Source: Candidatus Algichlamydia australiensis (GTDB taxonomy: Bacteria > Chlamydiota > Chlamydiia > Chlamydiales > JAJFMI01). From it: DNA of 64,000 nucleotides. The position numbers were made by a program. Positions 57,001 to 63,000 of the stretch are shown one piece after another. The stretch covers positions 628,875 to 692,874 of the forward strand of contig JAXCHI010000003.1 in NCBI GenBank assembly GCA_033977065.1, given 5' to 3'. Each line of letters opens with the position of its first letter. Position 1 is the first letter of the stretch.

Positions 57001-60000
57001 TGTGATCGTTACGCCATTGCGCATAGTTGTGATGACCTGGCCTGGATAGTGATTGTTTTGCCACTCATCCGGTGATACGTCATAGCCATACTTGTGAATA
57101 TAGCGTTGAGAAACTACCTCGCTCTCGCGACTGCGATTATTATTGTCGTGGCAGCCAGCCAAGGCGAGAAGTGTAAATAGGGAAAGCATTTGCTTTTTCA
57201 TGAATTACCTCAGAAAGTCGTCTTTCCTTTAAGAATTACGCAATGGGAGGTAAAATTCAAGAGTTTTTCCTGAGAAATAATAAAAGGGAATCACTGTAAC
57301 TAGATAGAAAATTCTTTGTTGAAAACTCGCAGGAGAATGAGGTGTTCTGAGTTTATATGGTTTTAGCAATGGAGAAAAGATAACAGCCATTCCCAAAATT
57401 CCCAAACCAATTTTGTTTATGCTCATCTTATTTTGCTGCGCTCTACCTAAAACAAAGTTTTTTATTTGGTTTCTAAGTGGGGTAATAAAGGGAGAAAAAA
57501 AGAAAGAAGTAGCTCCAAAATTTAAAATCATAAATTGTGCAATGCGCTTTGCGCTCTTGAGATGAGGAGCGCTACGATAAAAGAGGCAGGCTGATAAGAC
57601 AAAAGCAAGAGGCGCAAAGGCTGCATAAGGCGCATGAAGCTCTTTTTCATCGATGTAATCTCGTAAAAGTTTTCCAAGAGGTAAGCAGTGGAATGCTGTG
57701 GCACAAAGAGATGTAGCCGTTAGAAATTGAGCTGAGCCAAATAAAGATTTGAGCCCGACTTCTTGTGTAATGACTTTTGTGTAGTAAAAGTGTGTCCCTA
57801 TTGCTGTGATTCCAACTGCAGTCATGAAGACAGTTTACATAACAGCGTTTTTTAATGCCCCCATATGTGTAAAAAGCAACTTGCTATGAGCGCGTTTGAT
57901 TTTTCCAAATAAATTTCTTTGAATAAGCTCGCAAGCAAATGCCGAGGTACTAAGATCTGAAGAGAAATAAAGATAGCTCAAGGATGCTCCTCCAACGGCA
58001 ACTGCCGCAGTTGTTTTGTACGGATTGCTCTCTTTTTTAAAACTAGAAGGGAGGACGGCGGCTTCTTGCTGCGGTTCAAAAGACTCGAGTTCTTCTTTAA
58101 GATCTCGAATAGTACGTGTAAGTAATTTGATGTAGTGTTTCTTCTCTTTAGAAGTTAAAGTTTTAGGATCATAAAAGTCTGAAAAGTCTGCCAGTTGGTA
58201 AAATTCAGAGTTTAAGGGGTCATATGTGAGGTTAGTAATTCTGGCAATTAATTCTGCAACTGACGAATTTAATAGCCCCCAAAGTTGTTTGTTTCCTACA
58301 TGGACTAAGGCGTCTTTGAACGTTTCTAAGTGTGAAAGACTCTGTTGATGGCAGACTACTCCTGCAACAAATGCTCCTATTGCGAACAGATAAGGAAGTG
58401 TTTCAAATATTTCCCCTTGCCACCCGTAGTCCGGTTCAGGGGGAATAGATTGTACTTGCTCCTGAACAAGCCTTTTGATTTTGTCTCTATTTGCTAGAAT
58501 TGAGGTGCGCAAACGGTTGCGTTCGGAAAGCACGGGCTCTTTTGTTTCACGAAAGGCTGCTCGAGGTAGATCCTTCCAGTAATCTGATTCCGATTTATAT
58601 GCGAAAGTTGCAATGGTTGTCGATTTTTTACCCAAAACCTTTTGAACGATCTTATTAACAGGAATCTGAGAAAAGGCTGCCATAGTTAGAACCTTTGCGC
58701 CCAAAAGCAGTAGCAAACCAGTGGTGGGATCAGAATAGTTTTCGGAAAGCAAAGAGTTATAAATTAAACAGGAGGCGGCCAATAATGAGATGGCTAGGAC
58801 TCCCATTGACTCTTTGGATATTGTATGAGGGCTTTGGTCTGTTGGGGTAGCGATTGTGTAAGCAAGTTCGGTTTTCATATTTATTATCTTGTTATTAATT
58901 TATAACAATAATTATATATATTAAATAATTTACTTGCAAATTGTTTTGCAAAAAATTGTAAATCAATTACTTACAAAATAATAGATTTTAGTGCGAGGGC
59001 ATGGAGTTTCACTTGCCTACTGAAAGGTTTTGCGACAATGTGGGCGTAGGGCATTGCTTTAATCTGATCTGCAACATAGGTAAAACCGCCATTTTTAGAG
59101 TAGGCGTAAGAGCAGGCTAAACCCAAAAGGCCTAAGCTGATTTTTGCAGTAGTTTTGAAATAAGAGCGCTCTTTTTTGGGAAGAGTGGGAGCTTGCAACT
59201 CTTTTTTATTCCATTTAAAAGAGTTCACATCTTTTGTTATATCTCGAACTGCATGAGAGAGGAGAGCCGAGAGGTGTTGAATCTCCTTATCTGTTAGATT
59301 TTCCGTATTATAAAAATCAGAGACTCCAACAAGCTCATAAAAAGAGAGGTCGAAAGGATTTGGGATCAACCCCATAGTCACAGGATAAAACATCCTGCGA
59401 AAAACGTGTCTTTGGGTCATATGTCCTAGAGCAAGGCCAAATGTTGTGAGGGGAGGGAGGCTTTGTTGATAGCAAACTGTAGCGCCCAAAATTGCGATGA
59501 TAGCGGCAAAGTAGGGTGCTAATGTCCACAGTTTTTCCTGAAATGTTGGTTCCACTTCGGGAGGCATTTTCTGGATTAAGTCATCTACACGCTTTTTAAT
59601 TTCTTCTTTTTTTGAGAGGAGAAAATCACGTAAGCGCTCCCGTTTTTCTAGTGCTTTTTTCCCAGAACCAGTGTAGTTGCCAAATAGAATATTGAGGTAC
59701 TCATTGCGATAAAAGTCCCACTTAGAGCGGGGGGCAAAAGTCGCAACAGCAGTGGAGTCATTTTGTCCTGTGATAGAAGTCAAAATTTTACCTACGGGGA
59801 TTGTGGTAAAAGCAAGCACCGTTATAACTTTTGCTTGCATAAGCAGGAATGTCCCTGTAAAGGGCTCGGGCGAATTTTGCTGTATGAGGGTGCTATAAGA
59901 GAAGTATGAAGTAAGAAGAGCTGTAACCGCTAAAGCAGTCAAACTCCATTTCGTAACGGAGGGAGGCTTTTCCTCAAGAGAGGGAGCTCTAATCGCATAG

Positions 60001-63000
60001 GAGGTGTCTCGGGAGATCATGCTCATCAAATGAAGTGCTCCCCAAGATCTGTAACGGTTTGCTGGAAGTAGCCACTTAAGGCGTCATCTAGCCACTCTTT
60101 CCAGCTGCCCTCCTTATCTCCCTTTGGGATTTGGCACATGTGATTTTCTAAATTTTCAAAAAGGGCTTCAACGTCTATCATCTCTATCAAATTTTTCATC
60201 TTTTCGGTGGGGGCAAGAGCCATTAACAGTGTTTTTATTCCCCAGCTCACCGTCTCTATAAGGTTTTTCATTTTTTTGATGTAGGCAAGAACCATTAACA
60301 ATGTTTTGACTCCAAAGGCTACTTGTTTCCAGACACCCTGAACTCGGGCTGTAGTGAGATCGCTGCGCTTTAAATACGCTCTCTTCTCTGTACTGAATTC
60401 TTCTGAAAGAGCTTGAATATTTTTATAACTAGAGTGTTTTTGCTTAAGTTTGTGAATGGATTTCCGAATTTGCTTAAGCTCTTGCACAATTTTCTGTAAG
60501 TGTTTTTGCGACTCAACCCCACTTGCTGACTCTATCCAAGTTTGTAGTATTGGGGTGCTGCTAGGAATTGCTTTTGCGACCTCTTTGAGAGTAGATAAAA
60601 GTGTTTGGATGTCCTCTTTTTTTTGTGGGTTTGCTGCTAAGTCTTCAGCTTTTAGAAGAAGGGCAAAAGAGCTCTCTTCTCGCTCTTTGTTCATTTGCAA
60701 ATGAATATTGCGAATTTTGTGAAGATCCGCAGGCTCTGTTTTCCCGAGATCCTGATTTATCTTATCTCCCATCTCGTGTACAATCTTTTTCAAAATCTCA
60801 ACTCTACGCTCTTTTTCCCATGAGTAAAGTTGATGAGCATGAGGTAGAAAATCCTCTAAGCTTACGAGCGTTTCGGGAGAGGCTTTGCCTGAGTACTCTT
60901 TGGAAATCAAGCCGTAGGTAAAATAGTTTCCAATGCTTGATAAAAGCTGTTCTCCTGCAATATAGGTAAGAGTTCTGCGAGTTGTTCCTAAGAAAATCAA
61001 TGAGCTTTGAAAGAGATAGACCGCTCCGATAAAGGAGAGGACAGAGAGCGCAACGCGAATGATTTTTTCTTGCAGATTGTGGTGAATTTCATGATCAAGG
61101 TACTTATTTAAGATCTCGACACGATGTTCTTTTAGAAAAGAGTGCTTGAGGCGCTCTTTGTCACAAAAAAGTGTCACCTCATCTAAATTTTCAGCATTAG
61201 TTGTAAAATTTGCAATTGTTGTATCAACCTCTCTTCCTAAAATCGTATCGATGACCTTCCCAACCGGAATGAGTACAAAGGCAAGAGTACAGAGAACATT
61301 TCCTCCTATATACCCCCCAATCTCAATTGGGGATGAAACAGGAAAATAAGGAGCTGTATACTTCAAAAACAGAGCATATACTATTGTTGTTCCTGCTACG
61401 TAAGAAATTTTTGAAATTAAGGAGGAACTAGGAGGTTTAGAATCAATTGCTGCTACGCGCAATTGGAGGTCAGGAGCACCTTTTTCTATAGAAATATTTT
61501 TAATATACTCAATGGCAGTCGAATTCCCATTTCCATAAATAGAAGGGGGGAGTCGATGAGAAGAAAACGAGGGAATAAGAGATGTTTCAGCCATTTGTAA
61601 TAATAATCGTTAATTTGAATTATTATTATAAATAATTGAATAATTAATTGCAATAAGAGATTTGAAAATAAAGTAAAATTTTTAATATAATATATTTTCT
61701 ATGCAAGATTTGAAGATGAAGTACAATACATAATCCCCTACCCACTCTTTAGAGATGGTATTGACTTTCTTAAGGGGAGGGGAGAACTTAATCCCCTCAA
61801 GCATGCCAACAGCGTTTAGTATCCATAATACACTAGCTGTGGCTTTTAGGGCCGTGACAGTTATGTTTTGCACTTTTTCACTAAGTGTAGAGGCACTGTC
61901 GTTTCTCTCGTCAATTTCATCTTTCAAAGATTCGATCTCTCTAGGAAGAGCAGTATAATCACCGTACTCATAGCTATCAAAGGTTTTATCGAGGTAGCTT
62001 GTAAGAGGTGCTTTTTCATTTCGAGCCTTTTCAAAGACTCTCTTTCTCTCTTCAGGTTTTTTCGAATTTGGGAGATATTTTTTGATCTCCTCACTCTCAG
62101 GTAAGTAGCGATCAAGATAGGCTATTTTTTCAAGGAGGGTCTCTTCGCTAGAATTACCGGCATTCAATAACTCAACAACTTCGGCTTTTATTGTTGTTGG
62201 AAGAAGTTTATGAAGAGCTTGTCTTAGCGCAGTTCGTTTTTTGCTTTTTTGTAATTTTTTCTCCATAAACTTTTCTTGGTCTGCCCAAGTGGAAGAGTTT
62301 GGAAAATAGTTTTTAAGCTCTTTGTTTTCAGGGTAATATTTTTGAAGCTCTGAAAGCTTTACCATTAAATCAAAGCGTTTTTCTTTCTTTTTTTTGTCAC
62401 ACTTGATCTCTTCATATAGTCCAACCTCTTCATGTAAATTATGCACAAGAGAAAGGGGAAGCTGTGCAATTTTCTTCAATCTCTCTTTTTTAAGTTCATC
62501 TGTACTTTTTTCTTTCTTATCAACATGCCCACCACCAGCTTTTGAGATCTCATCGGCAAATTTGCTCTTTTCGGTTTCCAACTCCATAAGAAGAATTTCC
62601 ATCTTTTTGCGGATACCTTTTGGATCGCTATCGGTTGTATTTTTGCTACAATCAAACGGGAGGGTCTCTTGGAGAGGGTTAAAAGTTTTGATAACGCTTT
62701 TTGCACCACTAGCTACTAGATTTTTGTAGTAGCTTAGGTGGTAAAATTCATCACTCGTTGTTTTAGGAACAAAGGTTTCAGGGAGTATCTTTTTTAAATC
62801 TTCCAATATTTTGGTTTTTGCGGATTGAATTTCCTTAGCGGCTTCGCTACCATCTTTGTTTGTCTCTGTATTTTTGATAAGGTTAAGTAAATCAGATTCT
62901 TTGCTGGGGTAAAAAGTAGCGAGTTTTTTAATATTTTTTAGGACCTCTTCTGCTTCAACTTGAGTTAGTTCTCCACTTAGTAATTTATAAGTTCTTTCCG

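Follow-up and report, generated by a model that had tools for sequence, protein, structure and literature searches.

A clade-restricted tandem array of candidate Inc-like membrane proteins at the pheT-MORN junction of Candidatus Algichlamydia australiensis

A stretch of 64,000 nucleotides (nt) from Candidatus Algichlamydia australiensis (contig JAXCHI010000003.1, positions 628,875 to 692,874; hereafter the window) carries near its end a tandem array of minus-strand genes, four of which had been described in an earlier note on this DNA as paralogous genes for inclusion-membrane (Inc)-like proteins. From the sequence comparisons reported here, the array is best described as a young, clade-restricted and new Inc-like family of putative type III secretion system (T3SS) substrates, a reading to which a probability of about one half is assigned. 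The choice between Inc proteins and proteins of the bacterial envelope is one for experiment, and at those same rough odds Inc is the best available explanation.

Four minus-strand open reading frames (ORFs) of 198, 347, 352 and 522 amino acids (aa) were present at 57229-61594 exactly as the note had given them. A198 (EFCAOE_05470; 57229..57825) is a compact, core-only paralogue that has four hydrophobic segments and no N-terminal leader. B347 (EFCAOE_05475; 57835..58878) and C351/352 (EFCAOE_05480, SNF33_05430; 58971..60029) have the full layout, and D522 (EFCAOE_05485, SNF33_05435; 60026..61594) is a long paralogue whose stop codon overlaps the start of C. Translation of C from TTG gives 352 aa, and from ATG at 60026, the start used in the NCBI and Bakta annotations, 351 aa. 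The 4-nt overlap through which two of the genes had been proposed to be translationally coupled (TTGA) is present with the TTG start and shrinks to 1 nt (TGATG) with the annotated ATG.

B347 and C351 were 33% identical over 309 aa (E 1e-55), and D matched C at E 3e-10 and B at E 5e-7. A198 was recognized by a profile hidden Markov model (HMM) trained on B, C and D alone, at 14.2 bits (E 2.5e-4), the best of 2000 shuffles reaching 5.4 bits. When the same model was run over the 308 ORFs of the window, A198 was the sole match outside its B, C and D members. By these scores A, B, C and D are true paralogues, with A198 the weak one. Alignment together with relatives from two other chlamydial loci gave a single collinear plan. 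A leader, helix 1, a short loop and helix 2 ending in AF..(I/L)P(V/L)(G/N)K are followed about 15 residues on by T(T/A)(I/V)A.F and a variable linker of 0-110 aa. Next come helix 3, the motif (Q/K).S.P.L.T and a variable region that usually contains D(F/L)SDF...L(T/S)..EK, and last come a fourth hydrophobic helix, which is weaker, and a tail. The significant pairwise and HMM scores and this common plan bear out the description of the paralogues as diverged yet collinear.

The (I/L)P(V/L)(G/N)K(I/L/V) motif singled out in the note was found in all four ORFs, as IPVNKI, IPVGKI, IPVGKV and LPLGKL at residues 72, 76, 109 and 48 of B, C, D and A, respectively. Of the T(I/A)A(T/N)F motif described along with it, exact copies occur in B and D and loose ones in C (AVATF) and A (YAAF); an A..F about 15 residues past the first motif is invariant in all four. 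Hairpin and motif together occupy 58648..58809 in B347 (residues 24-77), 59784..59933 in C351 (residues 32-81) and 61253..61420 in D522 (residues 59-114), and the hairpin-homologous N-terminal 53 residues of A198, with LPLGKL at their end, occupy 57667..57825 (all minus strand). B347 can be divided into a leader (residues 1-23), the hairpin (about 24-69), IPVNKI (72-77), transmembrane (TM) helix TM3 (160-176) and a weak TM4 (289-305), and D522 into a 58-aa leader, the hairpin (59-109), TM3 (178-194) and a helical C-terminal extension. The internal duplication of 21 aa reported for the longest gene is real (60179..60313, minus strand; residues 428-448 and 452-472), with the correction that its period is 24 aa; the copies agree at 15/21 aa and 50/63 nt and span a weakly hydrophobic segment corresponding to the fourth helix. 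An N-terminal layout shared by all four genes, as proposed, holds for B, C and D only. A198 has no leader and begins within the first lobe, which is too weakly hydrophobic to score, and its loop contains no proline. It aligns to the family TM2 motif, TM3 (LFYRSAPHL) and TM4, so that helices 2, 3 and 4 are retained with their motifs, while the 80-aa linker is missing along with a convincing helix 1 and most of the soluble parts.

Hydropathy was assessed with crude Kyte-Doolittle and Hessa-scale scans, in which the 17-residue cores reflect the scan window and not predicted helix lengths. In B, C and D two hydrophobic cores lay 11-17 residues apart and a third helix lay at about 160-195, in line with the bilobed region and later TM segment reported for these proteins. 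In A198 the first lobe failed, and the close hydrophobic pair was TM2/TM3. Close helix pairs were found elsewhere in the window in only 2 other proteins among about 50. Over residues 2-25, Ser, Thr and Pro made up a fraction of 0.38-0.42 in B, C and D and in two homologous proteins from the related loci (L1_338 and L2_318), compared with 0.17 +/- 0.09 in 48 other window proteins, which places the long members at about the 98th percentile. Such N-termini are consistent with a type III secretion signal and are not diagnostic of one. The hydrophobic region begins after 23-58 residues that include acidic ones, and no Sec-like n/h/c pattern was seen by inspection.

The family appears to be narrowly distributed. 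A-D had no match in Pfam, NCBIfam, PADLOC or PHROGs, and a family profile (A-D plus five relatives) matched no PDB sequence. No match to IncA (PF04156) or another chlamydial Pfam family was obtained at E <=0.1 for A-D or for the relatives P0005, P0006, L1_233 and L1_662. When 1.84 billion representative proteins were scanned exhaustively with a HMMER profile, six reached E <=0.001, namely A-D together with P0005 and P0006 (E 4e-7 and 1e-6), all on chlamydial contigs. These six are a lower bound because the protein library is incomplete: L1_662 would score 3e-6 yet is missing from it. Even allowing for library gaps, the scan makes it plain that this is a very small family. Word-indexed protein searches with C352, the family alignment and E769 returned self or window proteins or nothing, the E769 search being probably hampered by repeats. 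A widespread transporter family, which the note had named as an outcome that would overturn its interpretation, is excluded: no curated family was matched, and the HMMER scan gave only two relatives from outside Algichlamydia. A marginal HMM match in a further locus (L038; E 0.04) was rejected as a family member, being a different protein with repeated hairpins. This 589-aa protein (positions 2626-4392 of that locus, minus strand) contains two copies of a unit with a tight hydrophobic hairpin (..TVFRIALMSGVILFGCTYYF-GKGNRQN-TFYIASVVIPLIAYP..) and is another Inc-like candidate, in a relative without the family.

P0005 is encoded on contig JAJFMI010000173.1 of assembly GCA_021772235.1 (locus L001), which, to judge from the accession series, is probably a metagenome-assembled genome (MAG) from an Oslofjord-tunnel biofilm, and P0006 comes from SRR26803926, where it is encoded on a Logan contig (locus L002). 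The gene order in L001 is pheT, 233 aa, 662 aa, 338 aa (P0005) and MORN lipoprotein; in L002 it is pheT, 318 aa (P0006) and at least 273 aa before the contig ends; and in Algichlamydia it is pheT, E1110, D, C, B, A and MORN lipoprotein. All ORFs between the anchors in L001 and L002 are family members. A comparison of copy number across related genomes, suggested in the note, thus gave a difference, with at least 4-5 copies in the Algichlamydia array, 3 in L001 and none in 25 other loci. As side observations on these sources, SRR26803925 (L003) holds an exact D522, whereas the next-numbered run, SRR26803926, holds a different chlamydia, whose pheT shares 88% identity with the L001 one and whose family proteins are about 25% identical to those of Algichlamydia. 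If both runs were made from one culture metagenome, it may contain a second related chlamydia. The L002 pheT had no match to plasmids by megablast.

The array does not stop at 61594, as the description of four genes had implied, since the next gene is linked to the family. The window contains the 3' 773 codons of this gene, EFCAOE_05490 (gene E; 61682..64000, open at the window edge, minus strand), which is 1110 aa long in the published annotation; the comparison therefore rests on the in-window fragment, the N-terminal 341 aa lying past the window end. The fragment is repeat-rich, with one C-terminal hydrophobic segment, and contains 2.8 copies of a 234-nt (78-aa) tandem repeat at 91% identity (63315..63966, minus strand). 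Further, more degenerate copies of the repeat are also present. The C-terminal 440 aa of E are homologous to L1_662 (E 1e-13), a protein composed of a D-like N-terminal domain (E 2e-10 to D522) and an E-like C-terminal part. It is mainly because L1_662 fuses the family N-domain to the E-homologous part that E is counted here, as a probable fifth member of the array. D522 and EFCAOE_05490 are also joined in one OrthoFinder orthogroup, OG0010958 (PMC11317633). In the Logan assembly of the same organism (L003, SRR26803925) the E gene appears as two separate ORFs, which points either to a frameshift or to an assembly error caused by collapse of the repeat.

The genomic setting was examined through the gene for the MORN-repeat lipoprotein (56197..57201, minus strand), the conserved downstream anchor of the insertion site. 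This anchor yielded one GTDB genome locus (OFTM179, L004) and 35 metagenome loci; the latter were obtained with a hand-made degenerate pattern for IHKYGYDVS, a two-sequence MORN alignment having matched none there. All of the loci recovered encode a MORN orthologue (43-57% identity). Among the 25 loci having both genes, pheT and MORN were directly adjacent in 18, with <=110 nt between stop-to-stop ORFs, and the other seven carried unrelated cargo of 0.5-4.3 kb between them. This cargo comprised an inverse autotransporter (L024, L010), an S46 peptidase (L018, L028) and small membrane ORFs (L015, L036, L004), and in L010 an IS200-like transposase stands beside a 279-aa multi-helix protein. The family was present in 0 of these 25 chlamydial loci outside the clade. 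From the 18 adjacent pairs and the absence of the family from all 25, it follows that pheT-MORN adjacency is, on this sampling, ancestral and that the array is an insertion in one small clade, confined to Algichlamydia, L001 and L002, that was then expanded. The junction itself is, by the same comparison, a variable insertion site in Simkaniales-like chlamydiae. The differences among the three loci indicate growth by tandem duplication, by insertion and loss of domains and by expansion of internal repeats. The spacer upstream of MORN in L001 (5272-5326) aligns with window positions 57202-57260, that is, with the last ~30 nt of A198 and the spacer after it (..CGTAAT.CTTAA..), and may be a relic of the end of an A198-like gene or a conserved regulatory element. 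Two SNF2-family helicase genes occur within 35 kb in the window (17504-20926 and 53327-55516, both plus strand), the second of them in a conserved neighbourhood of pheT, MORN, ogt and helicase also seen in OFTM179.

The family diverges far faster than its neighbours. Between L001 and L002, pheT was 88% identical at the protein level (dN 0.074, dS 1.22, omega 0.06), and the two orthologous pairs of the family were 47% (233/318, dN 0.44) and 41% (662/273n, dN 0.57) identical, which is a non-synonymous rate 6-8x that of pheT. Scaled to the pheT dS as a local reference, the family omega was about 0.36-0.47, a rough value because synonymous sites are near saturation; saturation also made dN/dS of the B/C pair of paralogues unusable. 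In the comparison of Algichlamydia with L001, identity was 94% over the first 49 residues of MORN (79% in DNA) and only 24-30% for the family proteins. Gene number and architecture also vary among Algichlamydia, L001 and L002. These estimates point to purifying selection overall, and the combination of rate and turnover is the pattern expected of host-interaction proteins, a role that it does not prove. With only two outside relatives, a defined insertion site, fast evolution and a changing copy number, the characterization of the genes as a lineage-specific expanding family rather than a housekeeping cluster was upheld.

In silico, an Inc is recognized by two or more TM helices, each 15-32 aa long, with a loop shorter than 30 aa between them (known Incs have 3-22 aa). 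The loop has many P, G, N, S and T residues and no charged ones, the protein is restricted to chlamydiae and it lacks a conserved prokaryotic domain; the N-terminus was functional as a type III secretion signal in 90% of the candidates tested (Dehoux et al. 2011, PMC3048545). Algichlamydia is a chlamydia with a T3SS and inclusions (PMC11317633), B, C and D have a bilobed domain in the hydropathy scans, and the family is restricted to chlamydiae and has no prokaryotic domain. By prediction B, C and D largely resemble Incs as described by Dehoux et al. Insofar as they are Incs, the Ser/Thr/Pro-rich, disordered N-terminus of the long members (23-58 aa) would act as the secretion signal, and the proteins would pass through the Algichlamydia T3SS and insert into the inclusion membrane by the N-terminal hairpin together with the hydrophobic helices that follow it. 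The variable regions (helical, coiled or made of repeats), placed at two fixed insertion points past the TM2 motif and past TM3, would then face the Cladocopium cytosol and bind host factors. All of these steps are inferred.

Several known systems resemble the array. Like Incs predicted in silico (Bannantine 2000; Dehoux et al. 2011, PMC3048545), the family consists of chlamydia-restricted hypothetical proteins with an apparently non-Sec leader, two hydrophobic helices around a short loop rich in P/S/T/N/G, helical or coiled soluble parts and hot-spot clustering. It differs from them in that its sequence resembles neither IncA (Pfam) nor any other known Inc, its loops are charged, it has at least two further conserved hydrophobic helices and a juxtamembrane motif, AF..IPVGK...TTIA.F, and it is known from sequence alone. 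Tandem Inc hot spots and paralogue expansions are familiar in Chlamydia (PMC3048545, PMC3290821). In the arrays described in 2012 (PMC3290821), operon-like diverged paralogues likewise preserve their hydropathy profile, the typical bilobed domain is gone from some copies and copy number varies between related species; the present array differs in protein family, in belonging to a Simkaniaceae symbiont of a dinoflagellate and in its pheT-MORN site. Incs with several hairpins (CT147, CT288, CT850 and CPn0007; PMC3048545) resemble the family in their long coiled-coil extensions and in having more than two hydrophobic segments, but their extra segments form clear second or third hairpins, whereas TM3 and TM4 of the array family lie 30 to about 800 residues apart, and the topology of the array proteins is therefore ambiguous.

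Other features weigh against an Inc assignment. The hairpin loops, uncharged in known Incs, carry charges here: the Algichlamydia loops SENYSDPTTG, QQNSPEPFTG and KYTAPYFPVSSPIEIG are rich in P/S/T/N/G yet contain D, E or K, and those of the L001 and L002 homologues contain 2-4 K/R. Several lobes are only moderately hydrophobic, with a summed apparent free energy of 2-5.5 kcal/mol. The conserved unit is a core of at least four hydrophobic segments and not a lone hairpin, and with four helices the largest variable region would be predicted to be across the membrane from the N-terminus. The core-only A198 and L1_233 have neither a leader nor a Ser/Thr/Pro bias. AlphaFold2 runs on C351 and D522, for which 4-sequence alignments were used, gave an all-helical C351 (pLDDT 36) and a D522 with residues 1-56 as coil and the remainder helical (pLDDT 40), and these models were uninformative, although the coil at the start of D522 agrees with the disordered leader expected of an Inc. 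A cautionary case is furnished by Cpn0284 and Cpn0285 of C. pneumoniae, adjacent and species-specific genes whose products have an N-terminal bilobed region and were predicted to be Incs, as here, but were located experimentally inside the inclusion, where they remain on reticulate bodies (PMC1878484).

The main rival, a possible reading held with less confidence, is that these are clade-specific polytopic proteins that stay with the bacterium, in its inner membrane or envelope, after insertion via signal recognition particle (SRP)/Sec/YidC, and that their fast evolution reflects, for example, relaxed constraint in a small-population endosymbiont or envelope remodelling. The retention of the core of at least four segments in all members, including the leaderless A198 and L1_233, agrees with such proteins, as do an omega that is below 1 overall and the placement of the array within a co-directional housekeeping string of pheT, MORN lipoprotein and ogt. 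A non-synonymous rate 6-8x that of the neighbour, together with turnover of copy number, would however be unusual for structural envelope proteins, and the family is missing from all other chlamydiae sampled. The Lys-rich segment after TM2 and the few N-terminal charges fit an ordinary N-in hairpin, but the K/R in the L001 and L002 loops suits the positive-inside rule poorly. Bilobed proteins that are nonetheless reticulate-body-associated have a precedent in Cpn0284/0285 (PMC1878484). Secreted effectors, however, typically have leaders that are S/T/P-rich and long extensions of repeats or coiled segments.

An unlikely extension of the Inc interpretation is that the family represents a new class of polytopic inclusion-membrane proteins with a conserved four-helix core, distinct from classical single-hairpin Incs, in which core-only members (A198, L1_233) and long members with coiled or repeat arms in the cytosol (D522, E1110, L1_662) would co-assemble in that membrane as a scaffold or pore; if this were true, the expansion to five genes would be an adaptation to the photosynthetic dinoflagellate host, which no other chlamydia is known to infect. 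Secretion by the T3SS or another route to different host membranes, such as those of the endoplasmic reticulum or plastid envelopes, is quite improbable. It would draw on the same evolutionary and N-terminal evidence as the Inc assignment, and the host is photosynthetic, chloroplast interactions having been speculated for another gene (PMC11317633), but the sequences contain no pointer to another target and the hairpin domains of chlamydial type III substrates are overwhelmingly tied to the inclusion membrane (PMC3048545). That the ORFs are decaying, non-functional junk at a recombination hot spot can be given very little credence: A198 is truncated, starts 9 nt after B and has no evident ribosome-binding site, the junction carries varied cargo elsewhere, including the IS200-like transposase, and E appears frameshifted in the Logan assembly, yet every ORF is long and intact, the three genomes retain the motifs and the collinear layout even though identity is 24-47%, dN/dS is well below 1, and the compact A198-like form is also kept in L001, with an L002 orthologue 47% identical to it.

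Within the array, B is separated from A by 9 nt and A from the MORN-lipoprotein gene by 27 nt. Two longer, AT-rich spacers, one of 92 nt between C and B and one of 87 nt between D and the next upstream gene, align loosely with each other. Each contains a sigma-70-like promoter candidate, TTGCAA-17-TATAAT, upstream of B at 58911..58939 and upstream of D at 61625..61653 (both minus strand); these are consensus matches only, and sites of this type in the region were not more numerous than in shuffles. Because there is a promoter-like match in each AT-rich spacer, the sequence suggests two transcription units, D-C and B-A, from which there may be read-through into the MORN-lipoprotein gene.

The published genome provides a further frame of reference. 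Algichlamydia is an obligate intracellular member of the Simkaniaceae with a complete T3SS and lives inside single-cell inclusions in the dinoflagellate Cladocopium (PMC11317633). C351 was 100% identical to the hypothetical protein SNF33_05430 of its Cla049 MAG, and ORF lengths and spacing were the same as those of the contig_3 entries in Table S8 of PMC11317633, so that a window coordinate plus 628874 gives the contig coordinate. In that work pheT is EFCAOE_05495, next after EFCAOE_05490; B and C form the "species-unique" orthogroup OG0010957 and A198 is a singleton; and the proteins are treated as hypothetical and function-less, with AlphaFold pLDDT of 37-50, none being termed an Inc. OG0010957 and OG0010958, reported there as unique to A. 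australiensis (Table S11), have homologues at the same locus in GCA_021772235.1 and SRR26803926 and are therefore clade-specific, not species-specific. Elsewhere in the window, a 1771-aa RHS-repeat protein (32416-37731, plus strand; Pfam RHS_repeat, 5.5e-38) with a weak C-terminal DUF687 match is overlapped by a 167-aa ORF (37728-38231, plus strand), and the layout of the pair resembles that of a toxin and its immunity protein. A Fic/SoFic-like protein adenylyltransferase (45099-46190, plus strand; Fic_N, Fic and SoFic-like_C) is a possible effector, and an 82-aa helical ORF (55508-55756, minus strand) gave a sub-threshold match to SpaM/InvI (PF02090, E 5.8e-5, 23.5 bits vs a cutoff of 35).

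The array does not establish a new principle, as both prediction from bilobed domains and tandem Inc expansion are well known; it is a new family within a known class. It is mainly through Incs that chlamydiae interact with their hosts, and to our knowledge almost nothing is known of these proteins beyond Chlamydiaceae and Protochlamydia. No chlamydia before Algichlamydia had been shown to infect a photosynthetic eukaryote. Genes listed so far only as "unique, unannotated" orthogroups gain a testable role, the pheT-MORN junction is recognised as a variable hot spot in this order, and B, C, D and E provide a short list of candidates for the Cladocopium system.

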